DNA of 64,000 bases from Patescibacteria group bacterium (lineage in GTDB: Bacteria > Patescibacteriota > JABMPQ01 > JAQVVF01). Every line of letters starts with the position of its first letter. The stretch's first letter is position 1. The notes below the pieces were generated by a model, which saw only the letters and a program-made list of their open reading frames with translations, had not been told where the DNA came from and made no database searches. The position numbers and the translations under genes were made by a program. Location: contig JAQVVF010000001.1 of NCBI GenBank assembly GCA_028699085.1, positions 103,883-167,882 on the forward strand. Reading direction: 5' to 3'. Below, one piece after another: positions 3,696 to 39,521 of the stretch.

Positions 3696-4754
3696 TTGAC
3701 TTTTTTATTTTGTAAAAATATGAAAAAGTGTATCGCGTTTTTATATAATGTCAGACATAAATATCCAGATCAAAAAGATTTAAGCACTCATACTGAAATT
3801 GATTTTGATGATCCAATTACAATCAAGACCATGATCAAGCATTTTAAAAATGCTGGTTTTAATGTCTTACCTATTGAGGCTGATGAAAAAGCATATCTCA
3901 AATTATTAAAGAATAAGGAAAAAATTGATTTAGTATTTAATTATTCAGAAGGAAAAAACGGCCAAGATCGCGAGACACATTTGCCTTCAATGTTAGAAAT
4001 GCTTGAAATTCCCTACACTGGTTCAACTCCTTTGACTCAAGCCTTAGCACTAAACAAAGCGAAAGCAAAAGAAATTTTAGTTGCTAATAATGTCCCAACT
4101 CCGATTCATCAATTATTCAAAACAGGTAACGAAAAATTAGATAAAAAATTAAAATTTCCAGTCATTGTAAAACCAATTGGCCAAGGCTCATCTGGTGGCA
4201 TTACTAACAAAAGTGTTGTCTTTAATCAATCTCAGCTAAAAAAACAGATTAATCAAGTTGTTAAAACATATCATCAAGAAGCAATCGTCGAGCCATTTTT
4301 AACTGGTCGCGAATTTTCAGTTGCATTATTAGGCAATCCTCCAAGAATATTGCCAATTATTGAAGCAGATCATAGTAAATTACCAAAAAATTATTTGCCA
4401 ATTGATTCGCTAGAAGTCAAATGGTTTTTTGAAGAACAAGAAGACAAATCCGGCGCTTCCGAACATTTGATCTGTCCAGCCAGAATTCCAAAATCATTAG
4501 AAAACAAAATCCAAGCATTATGTCTAAAGACATGGAATGCTTTAAATATTCGAGACTGGTGTCGTATTGATATTAGGTGCGACTCAAAAAATAATCCTTA
4601 TGTATTAGAAGTAAATTCACCAGCTGGAATGATTCCTCCGGAAATATCAACAACATCCTATTTTTCGCTAGCTGCGAGAGCTGCAGGAATCGATTATGAA
4701 AAATTATTAACACAAATTATTAATACATCCTTACAAAGATATGCAAAAAAGTAA
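3696..4754 (+). CDS. D-alanine--D-alanine ligase family ATP-grasp enzyme (start may be the ATG at 3720, MKKCIAF)
   Basis: Ddl-like motifs: LVFNYSEGKNGQDRETHLPSMLEMLEIPYTGS, FPVIVKPIGQGSSGGIT, EAIVEPFLTGREFSVALLGN, C-terminal EVNSPAGM. Confidence 0.75.
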   Translation: MTFLFCKNMKKCIAFLYNVRHKYPDQKDLSTHTEIDFDDPITIKTMIKHFKNAGFNVLPIEADEKAYLKLLKNKEKIDLVFNYSEGKNGQDRETHLPSMLEMLEIPYTGSTPLTQALALNKAKAKEILVANNVPTPIHQLFKTGNEKLDKKLKFPVIVKPIGQGSSGGITNKSVVFNQSQLKKQINQVVKTYHQEAIVEPFLTGREFSVALLGNPPRILPIIEADHSKLPKNYLPIDSLEVKWFFEEQEDKSGASEHLICPARIPKSLENKIQALCLKTWNALNIRDWCRIDIRCDSKNNPYVLEVNSPAGMIPPEISTTSYFSLAARAAGIDYEKLLTQIINTSLQRYAKK

Positions 4755-10919: not shown

Positions 10920-12077
10920 TCATTTAAGTATTGTCATTAATTTTTTTACAAGCTCATCCCAGCTAAATTCATTTTTAACTCGCTCAAATCCATAATTTCC
11001 CAAATCATTAGCTAATTCCTCATTCCTTAAAATCTTAATTAAGGCGTCAGTAATCTCTTTAATATTTTCAGGATTTACTAAAATACCAGTTTGACCATCT
11101 AAAACAGCTTCAGCAACGCCTCCGGTATTTCCTGCTATAACTGGCTTTTTACAAGCGTTTGCTTCAAGATAGACAAGTCCAAAGCCCTCAATATCTTTTT
11201 TATTTTCCATCTCTTTCGAAGGCATAATAAAAACATCAGATAAATTATAATAAAAATTTAAATCACGATCAGTAATTTTCGTATAAATTTTTACTTTGTC
11301 ATCTAAGCGTAAATTTCTAACTAATAATCTTAATTTTTCAAGAGTTGGGCCATTCCCAATAATATAATATTTTGCATTTGGCACGCGTTTCAAAACATTT
11401 GGCATTGCTTTCAATACCATCTCATGATTCTTGCGTGGCACTAATCTTCCACAAGTCAAAATAATTTTCTGATTTTCTAATCCAAACCTTTGCTTAATTT
11501 TTAATGAATCTAAGGGATGAAAAAGATCGCTATTCACGCCTGGTGGGATTTTAACAAATTTCTTTGCTAATTCATTTTCGTCTCTATCAAAGTCGAATTT
11601 TGCCACAATATAATCGCGCATAAAATCAGTTGTCACAACAATATTTTGCGCTTCATCCAAAACTCTTTTCATCATCTTTTTCGTAAAACCAGACTTGTTT
11701 TCTATCTCTTTAATTTCAGTACCATGGGTATAAACAATGTAGGGAATATGTAATATTTTCTTAGCTAAATAAGCAGTCATTCCCATTGGATGAATATGGC
11801 CACAATGAATAATATCTATTTTGTTTTGTTTAACTAATTTTCGGACTGTAAAAAAATATTCCAGACTGCTTAATCCAAACATTCGTAATGCGCTATTATA
11901 ACTTTTTCTGACAATTTTAAAGCCTTGCTTATTATCAAAATCAGAAGCATTAGAATTAATTGGTGCCCAAACTACCACTGATTCTTTAGGCAATCTTTTG
12001 CAAATATTATACAGATAATTTTGAATTCCACCTCGTTCTGGAGGAAAAAAGAAGGATAAAAATAATGATTTTTTCAT
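10920..12077 (-). CDS. GT4-family glycosyltransferase
   Basis: C-terminal E-x7-E GT4 signature region (FGLVYLEANACKKPVIAGNTGGVAEAVLDGQTGILV). Confidence 0.85.
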   Translation of the reverse strand: MKKSLFLSFFFPPERGGIQNYLYNICKRLPKESVVVWAPINSNASDFDNKQGFKIVRKSYNSALRMFGLSSLEYFFTVRKLVKQNKIDIIHCGHIHPMGMTAYLAKKILHIPYIVYTHGTEIKEIENKSGFTKKMMKRVLDEAQNIVVTTDFMRDYIVAKFDFDRDENELAKKFVKIPPGVNSDLFHPLDSLKIKQRFGLENQKIILTCGRLVPRKNHEMVLKAMPNVLKRVPNAKYYIIGNGPTLEKLRLLVRNLRLDDKVKIYTKITDRDLNFYYNLSDVFIMPSKEMENKKDIEGFGLVYLEANACKKPVIAGNTGGVAEAVLDGQTGILVNPENIKEITDALIKILRNEELANDLGNYGFERVKNEFSWDELVKKLMTILK

Positions 12078-12085
12078 GAAATTTA

Positions 12086-12156
12086 TGAATTGAATATTGA
12101 ATATTTAATATTGGCATCGAGAGTAGGATAATATTCAATATTTAATATTCAGTAAC
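12086..12156. repeat. AATATT-unit inverted repeat hairpin at 5' flank of GT4 gene (direct repeat of the 10851-10919 element)
   Basis: tgaatattgaatatttaatatt ... aatattcaatatttaatattcagt. Confidence 0.55.
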
Positions 12157-12343
12157 TTTAGTTTATCAAAAAAGCCAAAAAAGCACAAATAATCGTCAAA
12201 AAATGGCTTATTCAAGCCTAGTTGTATAAATAATGTTGACAAATATTTTATATTGTGCTAATCTTTCATGATACATTCCTCAGGTTCTGGAAGCGGGATC
12301 GGACCCTACAACTGGAGAGAAACAAGGTAAGGAGGGCAAGGAA

Positions 12344-13384
12344 ATGAAGCGCAAGATCAACTGGATGCTGATGGTGGTGGTTTTCTATTTCTTCAACATC
12401 TTCAACCCGATCTACATGTTCATGGACGATGACGAGGGCCAGATCGCCTACGCGCAGGATGGATCCGAGCAGAAGGTCTGGACGATGCTGGATGCGGATC
12501 TGCAGGGCACCGGCGTGAGCTGGAAGCCCGCGTGGACCGAACAGCTCCAGGCTGCCAAGGCGATGATGGAAGCGAACCAGTTCTCCTGTCTCGAAGTGAG
12601 TGGTGTCGAGGACATCACCGGGTTCAACGTCGGCAACACGGAACTCCGTGCGGCCGGTGGTGAAGACCCGCTTCGGGCAGTGAGGGCGAGGGCGCGTGCC
12701 AGCTTCGTCATGAACAAGCTGATGGAGGTGGGTGTGGCGGGAAGCAAGATCCGTGAAGGTACCATGACGACCCGGGCCAACGAAGGCCAGAGGGGCGCCG
12801 TGATCCGCCTGATCGAGGACTGCATCCCCAAGCCGCCGGTCCAGTGCTGGGACAGCAACGAGAACTACAAGTGTGATGGTGATGAGGACGTGAACAAGGA
12901 CTCGGAGTGCAACGTGAAGGACTGCCAGGGGAACGACGGGACGGCCAAGGTCGAGATCAAGTACGACCTCGTCGGCCAGTACGTCAAGTACCTCGGAAGC
13001 CCCGAACGTGATCCGTTCACCGGAATCCTGCTCCGTGCCAACTTCCCCATCAGCGACAAGCTGACGTTGGGGCTGGCTGCGGAGTACGGCAAGGCGAACG
13101 AGATCGGTGCTGCCGGGTTCGAGCTCGACGCTGAGTGGGATTGGTTCCGCTGGATCAAACCGCGGATCAGTCTCATCGGCCGGGCCTACAACCTGACGAC
13201 GCACCTGTACTTCAAGCGTGGAGAAGTTGGTGGCGGCGTGGGCTTCAGCGGAGAACTCGTGGAGAATGAAAGCTGGTCCATCATCTATCAGGTGGTGGGC
13301 GAGTGGAAGTACGACATCGAGTACACCCGCTGGGAGTGGGAGGCGGTCAAGTCCGCGACGGGCGCCATCGGCGTCCGGTTCTGA
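12344..13384 (+). CDS. secreted OmpA-like-domain protein with C-terminal beta-strand-rich, OMP-like tail (paralogue P1, high-GC copy)
   Basis: AAGGAGGG RBS; hydrophobic N-terminus; CLEVSGVEDITGFNVGNTELRAAGGEDPLRAVRARARASFVMNKLMEVGVAGSKIREG resembles an OmpA_C peptidoglycan-binding domain; C-terminus ...GAIGVRF. Clear paralogy with the 15083 and 16072 proteins supports this strand over the antisense 12266..13444 ORF. Confidence 0.7.
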   Translation: MKRKINWMLMVVVFYFFNIFNPIYMFMDDDEGQIAYAQDGSEQKVWTMLDADLQGTGVSWKPAWTEQLQAAKAMMEANQFSCLEVSGVEDITGFNVGNTELRAAGGEDPLRAVRARARASFVMNKLMEVGVAGSKIREGTMTTRANEGQRGAVIRLIEDCIPKPPVQCWDSNENYKCDGDEDVNKDSECNVKDCQGNDGTAKVEIKYDLVGQYVKYLGSPERDPFTGILLRANFPISDKLTLGLAAEYGKANEIGAAGFELDAEWDWFRWIKPRISLIGRAYNLTTHLYFKRGEVGGGVGFSGELVENESWSIIYQVVGEWKYDIEYTRWEWEAVKSATGAIGVRF

Positions 13385-13470
13385 CGGAGAGTCCCGGGCG
13401 TCCGGCTTCGCAAGGAGTCGGGCGCCCGGTTCCGGGTGAGTCAACGGCAGAAGAGTGAGGAGGTAGAGAG

Positions 13471-14199
13471 ATGCGGAACTTCAAGCTGTGCATCATGGTG
13501 GCGATCCTGGCGATGGTGGTCGGATGTGCACTCGAGCCCCAGCCCAGCAACGGCAACGGCGGCAACGAGGGCGAAGGAGAAGGCGAGGGCGTCGAGGGTG
13601 AAGGCGAGGGCGAGGGTGAGCACCCCTGCGTGGCCGGCGAGTGCGAGGACGGGTTCGTCTGCATGGACGGGACCTGCGTGCCGGATGGGCAGGAGGGCGA
13701 GGGCGAGACGGACGGCGGCGTGGACGGCGGTGAAGGGTGCGAGTGCGACGGCGGCTGCGAGGGCGAGGGCGGCAACGAGTGCACCGAAGGGCAGCGGCAG
13801 TGCATCGAAAACGCGTGGCAGATCTGCGAGAGCAACGGCTACTGGGGTGTCCTGAACGACTGCCTCGAGGGCCAGATCTGCAACAACGGCAGCTGCGTGC
13901 CCGAGCCCGTGACCAACCCCTACACCTGCGCGGTCTGGATCAACGAGCGGGGAGAGCTGTGCGGTGACATCAACGGCCTGTCGTCGTGGACCTTCGGGTG
14001 CATGTACGAAGGGGTCGAACCGGTCTGCGAGCTGAACACCTACAACGGTGCATGCGTGCAGATCCCGGACGATGTCGTCAACACGGCATGGCCTCGGACG
14101 GAAGATGGCGGATGGCTGACGGTCGCGGGCTGCGAAGCGCGCGATGGTCTGGTCATCACCATCGACCCGGCAGGTGGTCACTTCCTGACGCTCCCCTAG
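13471..14199 (+). CDS. cysteine-rich lipoprotein with (GE)n low-complexity linker and EGF-like Cys modules
   Basis: GAGGAGG RBS; signal peptide plus lipobox MVVGC; GNEGEGEGEGVEGEGEGEGE tract; multiple CxxGxC motifs. Confidence 0.6.
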   Translation: MRNFKLCIMVAILAMVVGCALEPQPSNGNGGNEGEGEGEGVEGEGEGEGEHPCVAGECEDGFVCMDGTCVPDGQEGEGETDGGVDGGEGCECDGGCEGEGGNECTEGQRQCIENAWQICESNGYWGVLNDCLEGQICNNGSCVPEPVTNPYTCAVWINERGELCGDINGLSSWTFGCMYEGVEPVCELNTYNGACVQIPDDVVNTAWPRTEDGGWLTVAGCEARDGLVITIDPAGGHFLTLP

Positions 14200-14484
14200 A
14201 AACTTCAGTTCCCACCCGACAAACGCAAGTGCGTCGGGTGCGGCATTCTCTCCAACAATTCCAGTTCTTTCAGCGTACGTTCCTTCAAGAGTTCACTATT
14301 CAGTGGGCTCTTTTTTTATCCAAAAAAATATTGCATTTGAAACTTGGTTTTTGCTAAACCTTAGTTTCAAAGAGTGAGTATCAAATAGCCCTAAAGACAG
14401 AACACAATTACCAAGGCTAAAATATTGACAAATTTAGGCATTATAGTATAATACAAAGTCAAAACAGCACCTTTTGTACCTTCA

Positions 14485-14568
14485 GCCCGGATGGCGAAAG
14501 GGCAGCCGCAGGGGACTTAAAATCCTCCGTCGCAAGACATGCGGGTTCGAATCCCGCTCCGGGCACCA
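14485..14568 (+). tRNA. tRNA-Leu (anticodon UAA), type II with long variable arm
   Basis: Acceptor GCCCGGA/TCCGGGC, 3-bp D-stem with GG in loop, anticodon stem GGGGA/TCCTC with loop CTTAAAA (U33, TAA, A37), 13-nt variable arm with GTC/GAC stem, T-arm GCGGG-TTCGAAT-CCCGC, encoded CCA. Confidence 0.85.
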
Positions 14569-14597
14569 AAACATATCTCACGATATGTTTTTTTATT
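14569..14597 (+). terminator. rho-independent terminator after tRNA-Leu
   Basis: aacatatc-tcac-gatatgtt plus T7. Confidence 0.65.
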
Positions 14598-14609
14598 GTC
14601 AGAATCTAC

Positions 14610-14677
14610 GGGTTCGCCCCGCCATGAAGGCGGGGCGCCCTGGCCTTGTGCCAGGGCGAATCCCGCTCCGGGCACCA
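14610..14677 (+). repeat. 68-nt GC-rich tRNA-3'-end-derived element, copy 1 (GGGTTCG, two GC hairpins, then CGAATCCCGCTCCGGGCACCA)
   Basis: Last 21 nt identical to the 3' end of tRNA-Leu at 14548-14568; internal hairpins CCCCGCC-ATGAA-GGCGGGG and CCCTGGC-CTTGT-GCCAGGG; followed by its own terminator hairpin aacagtata-tta-ctatactgtttttt. Confidence 0.7.
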
Positions 14678-14725
14678 CAAAACAGTATATTACTATACTG
14701 TTTTTTCTTTAGATAAAAATGCTAA

Positions 14726-14793
14726 GGGTTCGCCCCGCCATGAAGGCGGGGCGCCCTGGCCTTGTGCCAGGGCGAATCCCGCTCCGGGCACCA
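14726..14793 (+). repeat. 68-nt GC-rich tRNA-3'-end-derived element, copy 2 (identical to copy 1)
   Basis: Identical 68 nt; followed by terminator hairpin agcagtatct...agatactgcttttttt. Confidence 0.7.
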
Positions 14794-15082
14794 TTAGCAG
14801 TTATCTTCAAGATACTGCTTTTTTTATCGCAAAAATAAAAAATTGTTATTTCAAAAGCTAATTTTCGAATATATGAAAATCGCAAAAAGCTTAAGAACAA
14901 TTTATTTGTTCAAGATAATTTATAAATACAATTATTATTTTGACAAATAGAATAACATTTGTGCGATTTGTGGCCGAAGGCATTCGCAAGATTAGTATGA
15001 AACACATTGACAAAGCAAAAAATAATGTTAAACTATCAAGTACAGAAAATCGCGCACTTTCCATTTCCAAAACGGAGGCATC

Positions 15083-15892
15083 ATGAAGACGATAGCAAGA
15101 TTCGTTGCTTTCACGTTGTTCATTATTCCTTTACAAAGTCTTGGCAAAGAGTGGCATGTACTTGATGACCATCAGGGCAAACTTTTGAATTGGCATAAAG
15201 AAGATTATTACACTCTTGAGGATATTATGCTTACGATTGCATCTAGACAGAAATCTTGTCTTGAAATTAGTGGCGCTGAAGAAGTAATTTCACTTCCATT
15301 CAATTCTCGTGATCAGGCAATTGGAAAATCAAAGTCATTTCGGGTAGCTTTAGCTAAGGTACGATCTGAATTTGTAATGGAAAAACTTTATGAAATAGGA
15401 GTGCCAAAAGCTAGGATCAGAGAAGGCCCCATTCTTAATCAGTCTGGTTATGGTGCTTATATTAAATTGATTGAAGAATGTTATCAGGAAGAGAATAAAA
15501 CAAAGTTGCCTGGCAAAGAAAAGATAGAAGATAGTAATAATGACAGCTATGATTTTCTTGGTCAGGGATCTAGCGATCAATATTTTGGCATTCATTTACG
15601 GAAAAGAATGTTGCTAGATGATGGCTTTGTTTTGAGGATTGGCGTAGGCATTGGCAAGACTCAAGACTATATTCTGACTCTAGAAGCAAATCTTGAATAT
15701 TTAATTGATCCAAATTTTAGTCCCTTTATTGCTACCTTTGTCAGAGATTATAATTTGTTAGAAAATGAAAAGATTGGCCTTGGGATTGGATTTACAACCA
15801 TAATTAATCAAACTAAAAGCTCAAGTATTTTTCTCGAAGTTGAATTGCAAGATTCAGTTGATGTTGAGGCAAGTATCGGAATTCGTTTTTAG
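15083..15892 (+). CDS. secreted OmpA-like-domain protein with C-terminal beta-rich OMP-like tail (paralogue P2, low-GC copy)
   Basis: GGAGG RBS, signal peptide; CLEISGAEEVISLPFNSRDQAIGKSKSFRVALAKVRSEFVMEKLYEIGVPKARIREG; alternating hydrophobic strands; terminal ...ASIGIRF. Confidence 0.7.
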   Translation: MKTIARFVAFTLFIIPLQSLGKEWHVLDDHQGKLLNWHKEDYYTLEDIMLTIASRQKSCLEISGAEEVISLPFNSRDQAIGKSKSFRVALAKVRSEFVMEKLYEIGVPKARIREGPILNQSGYGAYIKLIEECYQEENKTKLPGKEKIEDSNNDSYDFLGQGSSDQYFGIHLRKRMLLDDGFVLRIGVGIGKTQDYILTLEANLEYLIDPNFSPFIATFVRDYNLLENEKIGLGIGFTTIINQTKSSSIFLEVELQDSVDVEASIGIRF

Positions 15893-16071
15893 AACGCACA
15901 TTAGAGTTGCATTTGCAGCTCTTTTTTATTGTTAGCTATTTGACAATAATTTAGAAAAATAGTATTATCAATGGACCAAGTTTTAGATTGTACTCAAAAA
16001 TTTATTGACCAAGGGGACGGGCGCAGGTGCATATTGACAGCAGAGGAAGGCCAACCAGCACAGGAGGCCAT

Positions 16072-17331
16072 ATGAAGCGCTGTAGAGGTATATTGACCGT
16101 TCTTACTCTATGCCTTTTTGCCAGAGCTTCACATGCAGAGCAAGTTCAATGTCCATTCTCCGAAGTACCCGTATTTACAGCAGGCAAGATGACATGTACG
16201 CTAGCCAGCAAGACTGGATTCGTTATTGTCTTTGCACCTGAAAATTATTTGATTTTCATCAATACTCATCAAGTCAAGGAAGTTCCATACGATCGGCAAA
16301 ATGAAAGCTACAAGATTAATCTTTTGCCTGGCAACTATCAGATCAATATCATGAATGGCAGTGATATCTTCAAAGAAGAATCTATAAAAATTGAAGTCGG
16401 AAAGGGTATTTCAATCATCTTTGCATCACCAAAACTATTGTTCAAGACACCTAACGTTACTTATGCCCAGATTCGGCCAGAGCAGGTGATACAGAAGTGG
16501 GAATTGCTCAATGCATCGCTGAAGGGTATCGATTGTGTTTGGAAAGACGAATGGAAGCCCATATTGGCAAAGGTAGCAGAGGCAGTAAAAAAGGCAGAAC
16601 CAACTTCTTGCCTTGATATTGCCGGAGTTGATGATATTCATGATTTTGTGGGCATTAGCTATCCTGAAATAAGAGCAGCTGGCAGTCAGGAAGCTTTCCA
16701 TGCAATTCGAGCGCAAGGTCGAGCCAGCTTGATTATGTATCGTCTGGAAATGGATTATAATGTTCCACCACAGAGATTACGTGAAGGCAAGATTGAGATC
16801 AAAGGCGAAAAGGGTGTTAGAGGTGTGCGGATCACTCTCGTAAAGGATTGCGCCCATTTGCAAACAAGCCCTAGAAGTCTACCAAGTCAGGCAAGTCGCG
16901 TTGCAGATTCTTCAAGGTTTTCGTCAACTAGTATCAAGAAAAAGCGTCGTTGGGAAGCAATGTATGATGCGAGCTTTATCTTTGGTGTCGGGTACCATAC
17001 ATATCTTGGTAGAAAAGTATTCCAAACTCATCAAGCAGAATTCAAGGCTGATTTTAATTCAGTCTTGGTATATGCTGGAATGAGACTTGGAACAGCAGAT
17101 TACCAAGATTTTATGCCAGGAGTGAAGCTATCTCTTGGTTACAATTTTCAATATCTTAAGCCTCGGATCGGCATTTTAATTACTGCTTATCCAGCTCAAA
17201 GTATAATTGAATATAGCTTGACAACAGGCATTAATCTTTTGTTGCCGATTGAAAATCTATTCATCGGACCTCATTACGAAGTTAGCACTTTAGGACAACA
17301 TGGTTATCTAGCACTTGGTTACGAACTTTAG
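16072..17331 (+). CDS. secreted OmpA-like-domain protein with C-terminal beta-rich tail (paralogue P3, intermediate GC); start moved to ATG 16072 with AGGAGG RBS
   Basis: Signal peptide MKRCRGILTVLTLCLFARASHA; CLDIAGVDDIHDFVGISYPEIRAAGSQEAFHAIRAQGRASLIMYRLEMDYNVPPQRLREG; C-terminal alternating beta-strand pattern. Confidence 0.65.
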   Translation: MKRCRGILTVLTLCLFARASHAEQVQCPFSEVPVFTAGKMTCTLASKTGFVIVFAPENYLIFINTHQVKEVPYDRQNESYKINLLPGNYQINIMNGSDIFKEESIKIEVGKGISIIFASPKLLFKTPNVTYAQIRPEQVIQKWELLNASLKGIDCVWKDEWKPILAKVAEAVKKAEPTSCLDIAGVDDIHDFVGISYPEIRAAGSQEAFHAIRAQGRASLIMYRLEMDYNVPPQRLREGKIEIKGEKGVRGVRITLVKDCAHLQTSPRSLPSQASRVADSSRFSSTSIKKKRRWEAMYDASFIFGVGYHTYLGRKVFQTHQAEFKADFNSVLVYAGMRLGTADYQDFMPGVKLSLGYNFQYLKPRIGILITAYPAQSIIEYSLTTGINLLLPIENLFIGPHYEVSTLGQHGYLALGYEL

Positions 17332-17390
17332 TTTGCTCACATAGTTGAGCTTTTTTTTATTCAAAAAATATGCTAAAGTTAAAATATTAG

Positions 17391-17450
17391 ATAATAGCTG
17401 ACAGCTAATAGTTTTTCTATTAGCAATTAGCTATTAGCTTATAGTATAAG
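17391..17450 (+). promoter_or_regulatory. conserved intergenic leader motif, copy 1 (AGATAATAG...ACAGCT.ATAGT.TTT.CTATTAGC.ATTAGCTATTAGCTT) abutting start codon
   Basis: About 80% identical to 26901-26950; both end 1-2 nt before an ATG. Confidence 0.5.
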
Positions 17451-35282: not shown

Positions 35283-36377
35283 ATGAGATCGCACATTACA
35301 AAATTATTTTTGTTGTCTTCAGTTTTTATTGCAAGCTCTGTGTATGCTGAAGAGCCTGAAAAGGTTCCGTCTCATCCTGATTTTTCGATCGTTTTGCTTG
35401 CTGGCAATGGTCAGAAGGCTGATTTGCCAGATGCTGCAATTGAAATTTTGATTGCCAAGTTTGCAGGAAGCAGCTTGAATCTGAGTCTGGCTGGAAAGGA
35501 AATCTTCGGTGTAATGTCTGATGAAGAAATTAGAACTTGTTTTGCAACTGATGGTTGCGTTCGCAATGTCTGCATTACCAAGCAGATGGGTAGGATGCTT
35601 TATGGGACAATCATTCAGGAAAAAGGCAAAGCAGTCAAGTCTAAGCAGGAAGGCAAGAAGCCAAAAAAGAAGGTCAAAAGTGCTAAGCCTGCCAAGAAAT
35701 CAACTACTTTGCTTTCCATTGAGTTGACATTGTTTGACGCAATCAATAACAAGATTGATACGAGTTGGACATGCAAAAAATGTCCACAAGAAGAGCTTTA
35801 TGAAAAGACAATTCCTGAAATTGCCGATACTGCAATCAGCATTATGGCCAAAAACCCGCAGATTTGGTCCGAAAGGAAACCAAGCTTGCGTGCTGATGAA
35901 GCAGCCCTCGGCCTTCAGCCACAGGAAATTGAAGTTCTGCCTCCACCTCCAGTCGCATCTGCAGAAGAGGCAAAACAACCGGAAGTTGAAGTAAGGAAAG
36001 AACCTGTTGTCAAGGTCGAGAAAAAGATCGAAGTCAAGAAGCCTGGGCTTGACTGGCATTCTTGGACTGGAATTGCCTTGATGAGCATTGGCGCTGGTAT
36101 GGTTGGAACAGGTGCATATTTCGGCGTAGATGCCAACAATGCCCGTTCCAATTATGAAGCAACAAATGTCCAGCGACAAGCAATGGAATATATGGACCAG
36201 TCAGAATCTTCTGCTGGTAAAGCAAATATCATGTACAGTGCTGGTGGTGCTATCTTGCTAACTGGAGCAACAATTTTCTTGCTGGATTATTTTGAAATCA
36301 TTCACAAGAGCACAACTGCTCCGCAAGCATTGATCATTTCGCAACCGAGCGGACTCGTCTTGAACCTTTCTTTCTAA
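35283..36377 (+). CDS. secreted protein with Lys-rich linker and C-terminal TM anchor, unknown; elevated GC
   Basis: GGAGGGAGAG RBS; signal peptide; KKPKKKVKSAKPAKK tract; C-terminal hydrophobic segments. Confidence 0.5.
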   Translation: MRSHITKLFLLSSVFIASSVYAEEPEKVPSHPDFSIVLLAGNGQKADLPDAAIEILIAKFAGSSLNLSLAGKEIFGVMSDEEIRTCFATDGCVRNVCITKQMGRMLYGTIIQEKGKAVKSKQEGKKPKKKVKSAKPAKKSTTLLSIELTLFDAINNKIDTSWTCKKCPQEELYEKTIPEIADTAISIMAKNPQIWSERKPSLRADEAALGLQPQEIEVLPPPPVASAEEAKQPEVEVRKEPVVKVEKKIEVKKPGLDWHSWTGIALMSIGAGMVGTGAYFGVDANNARSNYEATNVQRQAMEYMDQSESSAGKANIMYSAGGAILLTGATIFLLDYFEIIHKSTTAPQALIISQPSGLVLNLSF

Positions 36378-36395: not shown

Positions 36396-36656
36396 TTTTT
36401 ATTTACATTGTTATTCAATATATTTATGCATAAATTTGATATTAACCATTTTTTTATTAAAAAACAAACTTTTTTGATAAGTAGGTCCATAAAGCTTGTT
36501 TTTTTATGCTCAAAATTGACAAAAACAACATAAATAGCTACAATAAGCCATTTTTATCTTGCCAAATTATTATTAATATGCTATATTAATTTGAACAGAA
36601 AACCCAAGGTTTCGGCTGTACTGACCGAACCTTTCATAGCAAAGAGGAGGAGAGAG

Positions 36657-39521
36657 ATGAAGCCAAGAAACATGGTTGTCTTTTTGTTTTGTTGTGTGAT
36701 TTTGAGTGGCTGTCTCAAGCCGAACGAAGATTTTTCGAAGAATCTGTGCGATGAAGATGTGCGTTGTTCTGATGGATTTACCTGTATCTGCAACATGGAA
36801 AATCATACCAAGATTTGCGTCAGTGAGTCTGATCTTCCTGAGAACGCTGTTTATGCCAGCAAGGAGACGATCTGCATGATCGAATCCGATGCCGGAGTTG
36901 ATGTCGGAACTGATGTTGAAGCTGATGGCAATGTGCCTGATGCTGAAACTGATGTCCAGACTGATGCTTCGTCTGATGCAGAACAAGATGGAGGCTCGGA
37001 TCTTTCGCCTGACAATGGAACCGATTTGGCTCCTGACTCTGGTGAAGATATCCCTTGTATTCCGTCTACTGAAATCTGCGACCTCAAGGACAACGACTGC
37101 GACGGCGACACTGATGAAGATTTCAACAATCTGAATCAGGCCTGCTCGTCTGGCTTGGGTGAGTGTGAAGCTTCTGGCGTCTACGTTTGTAGCGTCGATG
37201 GCAAGAACACTACTTGCAACGCAGTCGCAGGAATTGCTGTTGCTGAAGAATGTGATGAACTGGACAATGATTGTGACGGCGTTACTGACGAAGAGTTGGT
37301 TGGCTGTTGCGATGAAGACGATGTCCAGGAGTGTGGATCTGATGTTGGTGAATGCCAGAAGGGTCAAATGACTTGTCAGGAAGACGGCAGTTGGGGACAG
37401 TGCGAAAACGCTGTTGCTCCGATTGTTGATCTTTGCGATGACAAGGACAATGATTGCGATGGCAACACCGACGAGGATTTCATTAATCTGAATTCTGCTT
37501 GTCAGATTGGTCAGGGCGCTTGTCTTTCGCATGGCGTTTTTGCTTGTAGCGAAGACAGCCTCACGACCGAATGCAACGCTGAAATCATCCAGCCTTCCGA
37601 AGAGGTATGCGATCAGCAGGATAACAACTGCGATGGCAATACTGATGAAGATTTGGCTGGCTGTTGCATTCCCGATGATCAGGTTGTTTGTGGCTCCAAT
37701 GTTGGCGAATGCCGGCAGGGCCTCAAGACTTGTTCAGCGGAAGGCGTCTGGAGCGAATGTGTCGGCGAAGTCAAGGTTGCAGAAGAGCTTTGTGATAGCA
37801 AGGACAACAACTGCGACGGCTTCATCGATGAAAAGTTCGTTAATCTTCATGCACAGTGCCAGATCGGAATTGGCGAATGCGTATCGACAGGCACAATGAT
37901 TTGCGCAATTGATCAGCAATCGCTGTCTTGCAACGCAGAAGTCAAAGTCGGAAGCGACGAGACCTGTGACAACAAGGACAATGACTGTGATGGTAATACC
38001 GATGAAGAGCTGACGCGTGAATGCGGCTCTGATGTCGGCGAATGCCAGAAGGGCGTGCAGTCTTGTTCCGCTGGTGGCTGGCTTGTCTGCGAAGGCGAGA
38101 TTCAGTCGAGCGACGAGATCTGTGACGGCCAAGATAACAACTGCGACAACAATACTGACGAAGGTTTCAACATTGGCGATCAGTGCTTCAACGGACTTGG
38201 CGAATGCCGGACCGAAGGCGTGATTGCTTGTGTTGATGAAAATCAGAGTGCTTGCAATGCAGTTGCCGGCTCAGCAAGCGAAGAGCTTTGCGATGGCCTG
38301 GATAACGATTGCGACGATTTGATCGATGAAGAGCTGGAAGACTGTTGTGAGCCTGGCACAATTTCTGAGTGCGGTATTGATACTGGGGAATGTGTGAAGG
38401 GAACTTCCACGTGCCTGGCAGACCGCTCTTGGGACTGGTGTTTTGGAGCAACTGGACCTTCCATGGAAGAATGCGATGGCAAGGATAATGACTGCGATGG
38501 CGAAAACGACAATGATCTGATTGGCTGTTGCTCTCCGGGTGTTTCTCGCAATTGCGGTATCGATGAAGGCGAATGCCGAATCGGAACGCAGACTTGCTGG
38601 GAAAATCGGGAATGGGGCGCATGCCAGAATCAGATCTCGCCGACTGATGAGATCTGTGATGGTTTGGACAACAACTGCGATGGTTTCACTGATGAGGACT
38701 TTGACCTCACCTTTGATACCAACAACTGCGGTAGTTGTAACCACATTTGCGGAAATCAGGGGACAGCGAGTTCAATCTGCGAAGCTGGTGAATGCATTCT
38801 GCAATGCAGTCGCTTCCGCTTCGATGTGAATGCTGATCCTGCTGATGGATGTGAATGTGAAGTCACCAACTGCGGAGTGGAAATCTGCGATCAGGTTGAC
38901 AATGACTGCGATGGCGCTGTCGACGAAGACTGCCAGTCGCTGGTCATGTACCTGTCATTTGACAACCATTTCAATGATGGTTCAACGAATGCTAACAATG
39001 CTGTCAACCACGGCGCCACTTTCACTGCGGATGCAGTTTGTGGCCAGGCAGCATCGTTCGACGGAGTCGACGATTATGCTGAAGTGGATAGCGTGAGTAT
39101 GAATAGTATTGGTAATGAGTTTACGTTCTTCGCAACAGTCAAGGTGCGAAGTTTCGAGCTCAATGACAGAATTTTCAATAAATATCTAAACAAGCCAAGT
39201 ATTGGAATTGATTTTTCCGATAATGTTGGAAACTGCTGGAATTTTATGTTGTCTTCAAACAACATTGGTTGTAACAAGGCAGTAGCTGTCCAGACATGGA
39301 TTACCATTGCCGGAAAATATAGTAATGGTAGATTCATTTCTTATGTAAATGGTGAAAAAGATGTAGACGTAAATACTGCCAACATGCTAGGTACAAAAAT
39401 GTACATCGGTGCATCTAGCAATTCTGGAACAAAGAGTGATATGATTATTGATCAACTTGTTTTTTACAACAAGGCATTTTCGGAAGAAGAAATCGTACAT
39501 TATTTTAAAATCCTAAAGTAG
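36657..39521 (+). CDS. 955-aa cysteine-rich repeat lipoprotein: 11 x CD.xDN[DN]CDGxTDE (MopE/putative-metal-binding-like) repeats plus C-terminal LamG (Laminin_G_3/concanavalin-like) domain
   Basis: AAGAGGAGG RBS then ATG 36657; lipobox ILSGC; alternating repeat modules; C-terminal ...AASFDGVDDYAEVDSV...LVFYNKAFSEEEIVHYF typical of LamG_3. Moderately GC-rich (~50%). Confidence 0.75.
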   Translation: MKPRNMVVFLFCCVILSGCLKPNEDFSKNLCDEDVRCSDGFTCICNMENHTKICVSESDLPENAVYASKETICMIESDAGVDVGTDVEADGNVPDAETDVQTDASSDAEQDGGSDLSPDNGTDLAPDSGEDIPCIPSTEICDLKDNDCDGDTDEDFNNLNQACSSGLGECEASGVYVCSVDGKNTTCNAVAGIAVAEECDELDNDCDGVTDEELVGCCDEDDVQECGSDVGECQKGQMTCQEDGSWGQCENAVAPIVDLCDDKDNDCDGNTDEDFINLNSACQIGQGACLSHGVFACSEDSLTTECNAEIIQPSEEVCDQQDNNCDGNTDEDLAGCCIPDDQVVCGSNVGECRQGLKTCSAEGVWSECVGEVKVAEELCDSKDNNCDGFIDEKFVNLHAQCQIGIGECVSTGTMICAIDQQSLSCNAEVKVGSDETCDNKDNDCDGNTDEELTRECGSDVGECQKGVQSCSAGGWLVCEGEIQSSDEICDGQDNNCDNNTDEGFNIGDQCFNGLGECRTEGVIACVDENQSACNAVAGSASEELCDGLDNDCDDLIDEELEDCCEPGTISECGIDTGECVKGTSTCLADRSWDWCFGATGPSMEECDGKDNDCDGENDNDLIGCCSPGVSRNCGIDEGECRIGTQTCWENREWGACQNQISPTDEICDGLDNNCDGFTDEDFDLTFDTNNCGSCNHICGNQGTASSICEAGECILQCSRFRFDVNADPADGCECEVTNCGVEICDQVDNDCDGAVDEDCQSLVMYLSFDNHFNDGSTNANNAVNHGATFTADAVCGQAASFDGVDDYAEVDSVSMNSIGNEFTFFATVKVRSFELNDRIFNKYLNKPSIGIDFSDNVGNCWNFMLSSNNIGCNKAVAVQTWITIAGKYSNGRFISYVNGEKDVDVNTANMLGTKMYIGASSNSGTKSDMIIDQLVFYNKAFSEEEIVHYFKILK

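Follow-up and report, generated by a model that had tools for sequence, protein, structure and literature searches.

The window analysed here, a 64,000-nt stretch of contig JAQVVF010000001.1 from a Patescibacteria group bacterium, is given over mostly to envelope glycan biosynthesis: it encodes Wzz, Wzy, many GT4 and GT2 glycosyltransferases, WsaF, sugar epimerases, Ddl and an L,D-transpeptidase. Within it lies a GC-rich island of two genes, P1 and P2. A preliminary description, made from the sequence alone, had noted the jump in composition and taken it for either a very recent horizontal acquisition or a chimeric join. The jump itself was borne out on recomputation. The GC content of 12270-14270 is 62.3%, compared with a mean of 31.6% for the other 2-kb segments (standard deviation 4.5; maximum 50.6%, at 37 kb; z=6.8). 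In 300-nt sliding segments GC rises from 0.27-0.31 to 0.55-0.72 at about 12.3-14.25 kb and then comes back down; in 20-nt bins it goes from 0.15-0.25 to 0.45-0.65 at 12270-12290, and is 0.25-0.35 from 14280 onward. Third codon positions follow suit, their GC content (GC3) being 0.84 in P1 and 0.86 in P2 versus 0.19-0.26 in ten genes of the host genome. Indeed, codon choice in the island is inverted relative to the host for every amino acid (TTC 100% versus 23%, AAG 95% versus 18%, AGA 0% versus 55%). Every synonymous class has moved to G/C endings, whatever the tRNA logic (AAG 95%, CAG 100%), and the resulting usage is indistinguishable from that of L016, a true high-GC bacterium. Long antisense open reading frames (ORFs) cross the island, the usual by-product of GC3-rich coding DNA. 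The two genes with proper ribosome-binding sites proposed earlier were confirmed as plus-strand ORFs.

Related loci, numbered with L, carry this island as alleles A (the window), B (L002, L004), C (L010), D (L008, L009, L014), E (L011, L013), F (L012) and G (L018). Its features are as follows.

12236..12264, + strand: predicted sigma-70-type promoter, from sequence (-35 TTGACA at 12236-12241, 17-nt spacer, extended -10 TGcTAATCT at 12256-12264)
12278..12291, + strand: leader motif CCTCAGGTTCTGGA, invariant in alleles A-F; the GC-rich tract starts here
12344..13384, + strand: P1 (PHN19_00620), 346 aa; GGAGG 8-10 nt before ATG
13396..13427, + strand: GC-rich inter-gene hairpin, stem GGGCGTCCGGC / GTCGGGCGCCC
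13471..14199, + strand: P2 (PHN19_00625), 242 aa; GGAGG 8-10 nt before ATG
14215..14244, + strand: hairpin CCCGACAAACGCAAGTGCGTCGGGTGCGGC in the 3' untranslated region (UTR), with an 8-10 bp stem in the fold
14287..14319, + strand: intrinsic terminator (11-bp stem, loop AUUC, U7 run); the GC-rich tract ends here

As judged from these signals, the GC-rich tract is a single predicted transcription unit of native style, spanning about 12271-14319. GC climbs within ~20 nt of the predicted transcription start near 12271 and drops at the terminator. The promoter string TTGACAA...TGTGCTAATCT is identical in all alleles A-F, and its -35 element is in the style of the tRNA-Leu and P3 promoters downstream. 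The terminator is conserved in all aligned loci, and 14196-14322 folds with z=-3.7. A regulatory RNA in the leader was ruled out, since this region has no significant fold (z=+0.9) and no Rfam match. The P1-P2 hairpin is present in alleles A-F, with changes on both sides of its stem in allele A versus B/C/E (T.G to C-G, C-G to T-A). L004 has lost it through a clean 33-nt deletion (3828-3878), although L002, whose coding sequences are identical to those of L004, keeps it. The 3' UTR hairpin is invariant in alleles A-D (the window, via L001, and L002, L004-L006 and L008-L010) and unmatched in L012 and L013; a metagenome scan with it gave zero matches.

Recurrence, exchange and age of the operon

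Both junctions of the island recur in other assemblies. L001, which Logan assembled from SRR22315503, matches window positions 11566-14639 at 100% identity and crosses both of them; this is probably the window's own sample, so that L001 represents an independent assembler working on what are likely the same reads. AT-rich flanks (0.25-0.37 GC) around a GC-rich island (0.55-0.72 GC) were also found in L002, L004-L006, L008/9, L010, L011/13, L012, L014 and L018. These contigs come from JGI (3300028241, 3300026178, 3300026177, 3300037810), Ga0172379, the SRA (SRR24425292, SRR27710321, SRR13723394, SRR18595301, SRR22388014, SRR22388041) and one GTDB genome. The architecture is repeated in about ten samples and several assemblers, always in the order Wzz, GT4 (- strand), P1, P2, and the junctions of L008 and L013 sit inside contigs of 645 kb and 654 kb. 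Among GTDB species representatives only one has a P1 homologue; the 654-kb contig is from this genome, which bears the label 'uncultured Candidatus Saccharibacteria bacterium'. All related contigs were retrieved via P1-family, P2 or P3 proteins, and among those fetched the island is at the site in every one that covers it. Presence/absence polymorphism of the island was not seen among them; P3, P4 and the tRNA gene vary instead.

In L004, positions 79-2606 hold an insertion sequence (IS; an rve_3 transposase and a helix-turn-helix gene) directly left of the P1 promoter, and homology to the GT4 flank of the window is lost there. The 84.6-kb contig behind L002 stops at the same point, 74 nt upstream of the promoter. 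The IS probably explains the assembly breaks at the left junction.

The alleles are only 63-82% identical in nucleotide sequence, in near-identical backgrounds. L002 and L004 share allele B at 100% identity, yet their right flanks match the window at 95.4% and 99.5%, respectively. Between the window and L002, identity is 100% in P3 and P4, 87% in Wzy, 69% in the island and ~95% in the remainder. In allele C, P1 is nearest to A and P2 nearest to B. For each of alleles B, D and E, two or three independent samples yield the very same sequence (100% identity). Such mosaic identity, with alleles identical across samples, argues that recombination moves the alleles and rules out ongoing hypermutation. 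The alleles are thus discrete units that hold steady from sample to sample, and homologous recombination via the AT-rich flanks carries them from one lineage to another. The ratio of non-synonymous to synonymous divergence (dN/dS) is 0.24-0.38 for P1 and 0.24-0.48 for P2, compared with 0.01-0.10 for the flanks, and the two genes evolve 3-10 times faster than their neighbours. By this measure both are fast-evolving but evidently functional genes under purifying selection.

The operon is also old. The order DUF5656-Wzz-GT4(-)-P1-P2 is kept in relatives with flanking genes 70-86% nucleotide-identical to the window. Pairwise synonymous divergence (dS, by Nei-Gojobori) among alleles A-D is 0.6-1.4, and within same-amino-acid codons 19-48% of third positions differ among alleles A-F. 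Between the window and L008, island dS (1.0-1.07) equals flank dS (0.85-1.46), indicating that the operon was already present in their common ancestor. Over this time its composition has held: GC3 across alleles A-F is 0.72-0.85 for P1 and 0.78-0.86 for P2, with 0.73 in allele G, versus 0.19-0.37 in the flanking genes. When silent third-position changes were polarised by parsimony, the island showed 0.13-0.33 AT-to-GC and 0.05-0.11 GC-to-AT changes per site, rates that would balance at a GC3 of 0.54-0.86. The adjacent genes change in the opposite direction, with an implied equilibrium GC3 of 0.25-0.40 and one small-sample exception. Arithmetic from the polarised rates indicates that the flank regime, applied to the island since the A/E split, would cut GC3 by roughly 0.15. 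The high GC3 of the island is stationary, not decaying.

The positions within codons agree with this. P1 has a GC content of 0.57, 0.40 and 0.84 at first, second and third positions (GC1, GC2, GC3). Going by the Muto-Osawa/Lawrence-Ochman regressions, we take its GC1/GC2 to correspond to a genome of ~49% GC and its GC3 to one of ~69%. Its amino-acid make-up is like that of an AT-rich genome (FYMINK 0.24-0.30), compared with GARP 0.33-0.46 and FYMINK 0.07-0.14 in the high-GC proteins outside the clade that are described below. In a high-GC gene drifting toward AT, GC3 is expected to go first. A GC3 far above GC1 and GC2, together with AT-type amino acids, is therefore the opposite of the signature of a fading import.

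P1, P2 and their relatives

The predicted parts of P1, and the two related genes downstream, are as follows.

P1, N-terminus: hydrophobic helix/signal with ..AYA followed by Q
P1, residues ~44-157: OmpA_C-like alpha/beta domain
P1, residues 164-202: Cys/Asp-rich linker
P1, residues 206-346: 8-stranded beta-barrel, ending GVRF
15083..15892, + strand: P3, AT-rich P1 paralogue (GC3 0.27) that shares the N-terminal domain, has a barrel and ends in ..GIRF
16072..17331 (start 16027/16072), + strand: P4, P1 paralogue of intermediate GC (GC3 0.35), with an extra N-terminal domain

Neither P1 nor P3 or P4 has a Pfam or NCBIfam match at E<=0.1, PF00691 included, and P1 has no PDB sequence match. Its assignment comes from an AlphaFold2 (AF2) model built on 8 sequences, in which the predicted local distance difference test score (pLDDT) is 70 overall and 75-93 in the C-terminal half, with a predicted template modelling score (pTM) of 0.43. 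The model has an N-terminal helix, an alpha/beta domain at 44-157, a disordered Cys/Asp-rich linker and eight long strands. Residues 44-157 are predicted to adopt the alpha/beta fold of Pal, RmpM and OmpA-C, and the C-terminal half an eight-stranded antiparallel barrel like those of OmpA-TM, NspA, OmpX and OmpW, in which 7 of the 8 modelled strands alternate hydrophobic and polar faces (the exception being the first, 206-217). Every P1 allele has ..G(V/L)RF as its C-terminus. In the PF00691 superfamily a conserved Asp/Arg pair binds the peptidoglycan stem peptide; D90 and R118 of P1 do not vary across 18 family members and lie in a motif that resembles ..TD..G / RA..V...L...G when matched by eye, without superposition. 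The earlier description of P1 as OmpA-like was upheld at the level of the modelled fold, but with the domain order inverted. OmpA/OprF-type proteins and Pal furnish the two known elements, an 8-stranded barrel and the peptidoglycan-binding OmpA_C domain. P1 would be an 'inverted OmpA', with the OmpA_C-like domain first, a Cys/Asp-rich linker between, and an outer-membrane-type barrel with a C-terminal Phe last; on the strength of the modelled fold, the first domain probably binds peptidoglycan. It differs from OmpA/OprF also in having no sequence match in those databases and in belonging to a lineage believed to have no outer membrane.

P2 is, from its sequence, a predicted Cys-rich lipoprotein on an acidic stalk, which agrees with the lipoprotein, (GE)n tract and Cys modules noted before. 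It has a lipobox ..VVGC at 16-19 (MRNFKLCIMVAILAMVVG-C19, then ALRE/ALEP, by inspection), a (GE)n acidic tract, Cys modules in variable number and, at the C-terminus, a conserved Cys-rich domain of ~100 aa. C19 and 14 more Cys are invariant in five homologues, and the middle region gains or loses modules between alleles. The label 'EGF-like' found no support: P2 matched neither EGF nor MopE-type repeat profiles in Pfam and NCBIfam, nor any other Pfam, NCBIfam or PDB entry. Its AF2 model was poor (pLDDT 46) and unusable for a fold search.

Homologue searches covered 5.8 billion and 1.84 billion proteins. The word-indexed search returned only 6 proteins for P1 and at least 5 for P2. An exhaustive profile search of the 1.84 billion representative proteins gave 216 matches, in two groups that share either the N-terminal domain and barrel or repeats of the Cys linker motif. 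The P2 search and a profile search with the high-GC outsiders were dominated by low-complexity candidates (8000 scored). In public gene calls a spurious antisense ORF over the island takes the place of P1 and P2 (626-637 aa in L002 96-2009 (-) and L004 2715-4595 (-); 259 aa in L010 4748-5527 (-)), although the real plus-strand genes are intact there. Such miscalls will have left the family under-represented in protein databases.

The kinship of P1 with the AT-rich genes just downstream, suggested earlier, held up: P1 is 28% identical to P3 over the full length (E=4e-26) and 38% identical to P4 over the N-terminal domain (E=3e-25). P3 is restricted to the window lineage and L002-L007, being absent from L008, L010 and L013. 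The P4 orthologue of L008 has a GC3 of 0.34, though dS is saturated there, at 2.8. Some proteins of the same architecture have the amino-acid make-up of high-GC organisms, and one, P0036, lies on a 67-76% GC contig beside a Cys-rich protein. The high-GC flavour of the preliminary description therefore stands for the wider family. It does not identify a donor of the island, for which the databases searched offered no candidate. In a neighbour-joining tree of the N-terminal domain, the P1 alleles cluster (97% bootstrap) as sister to the AT-rich P3-like proteins and P0018 (85%), and the high-GC outsiders fall into a clade of their own (97%). The tree places the P1 alleles among AT-rich paralogues from Patescibacteria. 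The P1 family may ultimately have come from a high-GC lineage with two membranes, and such a transfer, if real, would be ancient.

Maintenance of the GC-rich composition

These results suggest a model, which we consider probable though well short of certain, whereby the island is a long-resident sigma-70-type transcription unit of the envelope glycan locus, kept GC-rich by a force that acts on its silent sites and RNA. The operon (~12271-14319) has long resided among Wzz, GT4, Wzy and further glycosyltransferases, and would encode two exported envelope proteins, the P1 barrel protein and the P2 lipoprotein. Because of their rapid evolution, allele swapping and envelope context, the two proteins may form a surface or host-contact module under diversifying pressure. 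Since described cells of the candidate phyla radiation (CPR) have a single membrane (PMC8871954), an outer-membrane-type barrel could, speculatively, act in the outer membrane of the host; no outer-membrane biogenesis genes were seen among the annotations of the 64-kb window. GC-richness would be held by a force on the silent sites and RNA elements of the transcript. Our best guess for this force is selection on mRNA or synonymous composition, with GC-biased gene conversion as the main alternative. We favour selection on transcript composition because the anomaly is bounded by the transcription unit and because recombining Wzy is unaffected.

The likeness to O-antigen, capsule and surface-antigen loci is considerable: the island lies between Wzz/GT4 and Wzy, has mosaic identity and elevated dN/dS and, like other hypervariable surface loci, shows discrete, deeply diverged alleles in near-identical backgrounds. 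Hypervariable surface-structure loci usually have a lower GC content than their genome. This cassette lies 30 points above its genome, and the effect is confined to the two protein genes, the glycan genes being spared. Literature searches turned up no relevant account of GC-rich islands or of outer-membrane proteins in Patescibacteria. The operon is a non-mobile, ancient compositional island that is not drifting to host composition, and it carries an uncharacterised family of predicted inverted-OmpA proteins. Atypical GC is routinely read as recent transfer, or as contamination to be trimmed from a metagenome-assembled genome; both are wrong for this operon, whose anomaly, seen in many samples, is old, heritable and actively maintained. 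It offers a natural system for asking what opposes AT-biased mutation at one bacterial locus, be it selection on mRNA composition or biased gene conversion, and the question of how GC3 is maintained is testable with existing metagenomes. P1, a fast-evolving, allele-swapped, OmpA-like predicted barrel, is a candidate for an epibiont-host contact molecule in a CPR lineage.

Several points weigh against this model. The deeper relative L015 has the same gene order and carries a homologue, P0018, at the P1 position with a GC3 of only 0.36, so that the GC-rich state is not universal. Nei-Gojobori dS and parsimony polarisation are rough at such divergence and codon bias; the contrast in substitution direction between the island and the adjacent genes is nevertheless clear. 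For selection to act on hundreds of silent sites, the effective population must be large. Conserved hairpins can explain why the UTRs and spacer are GC-rich, and the maintaining force may therefore work on codons only, not on the whole transcript. The P1 model was built from no more than 8 sequences (pTM 0.43), and membrane insertion is a prediction. A single membrane is taken from a few CPR organisms (PMC8871954), not from this clade. Finally, for the window's own sample the junctions are supported by assembled contigs, not reads.

GC-biased gene conversion at a recombination hotspot, without any selection on RNA, would make the GC-richness of an ancient resident operon a by-product. We think this unlikely, but it deserves serious weight. 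The locus is a recombination mosaic, AT-to-GC changes exceed GC-to-AT changes per site, and all synonymous classes go to G/C endings regardless of tRNA logic. According to Lassalle et al. (2015; PMC4450053), GC3 is higher among recombining genes in 11 of 14 bacterial groups, and there, as here, it is raised in recombining loci through non-optimal G/C-ending codons. Against it, Wzy is equally mosaic (87%, versus 95-100% around it) yet keeps a GC3 of 0.23-0.27, so that a recombining neighbour is spared. GC changes abruptly at boundaries that all alleles share, and these lie at the transcription start and terminator, not at conversion-tract ends, which would vary. The size of the effect, about +0.6 in GC3, is also unlike gene conversion: bacterial GC3 shifts reportedly (Fig. 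1 of Lassalle et al.) amount to a few percent, not +60 points.

A bolder version of the resident-operon model would give the composition a function. An operon-specific process or selection would hold GC3 at ~0.85 in a genome of ~0.22 beyond silent-site saturation, and the barrel of a single-membrane epibiont would insert in the outer membrane of its Gram-negative host at contact. Host-like composition could then serve, for example, controlled translation or export, resistance to AU-preferring nucleases, or host compatibility. We regard this version as doubtful.

Recurrent replacement of the cassette out of a GC-rich reservoir not yet sampled, for instance the epibiont's host, seems improbable. 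Each allele would have come to differ within GC-rich genomes and then been imported separately into the same promoter/terminator frame. Discrete and highly diverged alleles in near-identical backgrounds are what it would produce, codon usage is indistinguishable from that of high-GC L016, the wider family occurs in high-GC organisms beside Cys-rich proteins, and the short invariant GC-rich sequences at both ends could anchor recombination. However, every homologue above ~30% identity whose DNA was fetched has AT-rich flanks (P0001-P0006, P0012, L013, L014; the P2-only P0008, P0009 and P0011 left out), and the allele A-F homologues carry the same promoter. Moreover, the P1 alleles nest with AT-rich Patescibacteria paralogues, their amino-acid composition is unlike that of a high-GC proteome, and island dS tracks flank dS in more distant pairs.

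The very recent acquisition of the preliminary description, from a Myxococcota-like donor and inserted beside tRNA-Leu, is in our judgement very improbable. The compositional contrast is extreme, high-GC-style Cys-rich proteins occur elsewhere in the window (such as a MopE-repeat protein), and tRNA-Leu does lie next to the island, as the description had said, 166 nt downstream of the terminator. In its atypical composition and codons, its tRNA adjacency and its surface-protein cargo, the island is like tRNA-linked genomic islands. The likeness ends there. No integrase or mobility gene was found between 9 and 19 kb of the window, no direct (att) repeats pair 12.2 kb with 14.3 kb, and no empty site was seen among close strains. 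The island lies upstream of the tRNA gene with its own terminator between, and it is syntenic and GC-rich at the same site in all relatives down to ~70% flank identity. Its GC3 is stationary over a dS of ~1 rather than drifting to that of the host, its promoter is of native type, and searches for donor homologues came up empty. An integrase island is ruled out by the conserved synteny, the stationary GC3 and the absence of att repeats and integrase; likewise, a phage or satellite origin is ruled out, as no relatives of P1 or P2 were found on viral contigs.

Localised GC-biased hypermutation of the operon, akin to targeted diversification systems, would cover both hypervariability and GC, and an island 69% identical within a 99.5%-identical background, with boundaries that coincide with the transcribed region, would suit it. 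It is scarcely credible, however, given the perfect identity of alleles B, D and E between samples, dN/dS below 0.5, and no reverse transcriptase, template repeat or mutator gene seen nearby. An assembly chimera, in which a GC-rich fragment was joined to an AT-rich contig, can be set aside almost entirely: it would account for the jump itself and for the end of public contig L002 near the promoter, but an independent assembler gives both junctions exactly, different alleles in the other samples share them (even within the contigs of 645 kb and 654 kb), P1 is paralogous to the adjoining AT-rich genes, and the L002 break coincides with the IS of L004.

The intergenic region, tRNA-Leu and other features of the window

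Two features flank the operon.

12078..12151, no strand assigned: AT-rich palindromic block, 75 nt, in the divergent intergenic region between GT4 and P1
14485..14568, + strand: tRNA-Leu(taa), found by ARAGORN; Rfam 51 bits

The inverted repeats of the palindromic block, ATTGAATATTGAATATT / AATATTCAATATTTAAT, are 94% complementary. The block hardly varies between the window, L010 and L008, though their coding flanks are only 79-86% identical, and from its sequence it may be an operator or regulator binding site. tRNA-Leu has its own predicted promoter (TTGACA-N17-TATAAT at ~14426-14454); L008 and L013 have it too, whereas L010 lacks it but keeps the island. The tRNA gene adjoins the GC-rich operon without belonging to it.

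The segment between the terminator and Wzy (14320-17450) differs by lineage, holding tRNA-Leu, P3 and P4 in the window and L002, two tRNAs and P4 only in L008, a tRNA only in L013, and none of these in L010. Downstream of tRNA-Leu lie two tandem 116-nt units (14606-14677, 14722-14793) that copy the T-arm and acceptor 3' end of the tRNA (GGGTTCG / AATCCCGCTCCGGGCACCA); in both, the T-loop is interrupted by 42 nt of inserted GC-rich sequence that folds into two hairpins. Each unit then has its own hairpin and T-run terminator (fold z=-5.7). Copies were found in L002 and L013, one each, and none in L008; matches to Rfam were at chance level only. The units may represent either a small RNA resembling a tRNA or what remains of an att site. 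Additionally, L008 11960-12700 holds several copies of a palindrome, GAAACTCGGTTTT..AAAACCGAGTTTC, around its tRNA genes, and one degenerate copy lies in the window at 14336-14371. By its sequence the element looks like a miniature inverted-repeat transposable element or one of the repetitive extragenic palindromic type.

A second compositional outlier lies at 36591-39521, where a 976-aa lipoprotein-like protein (GC 0.47, GC3 0.48) carries MopE-type CDxxDNDCDG repeats (PF11617) and a Laminin_G_3 domain; the exact protein turned up only in SRR22315503. The gene upstream of it, 35283-36377, has a GC3 of 0.40 and a weak, sub-threshold match to xenorhabdolysin subunit A.

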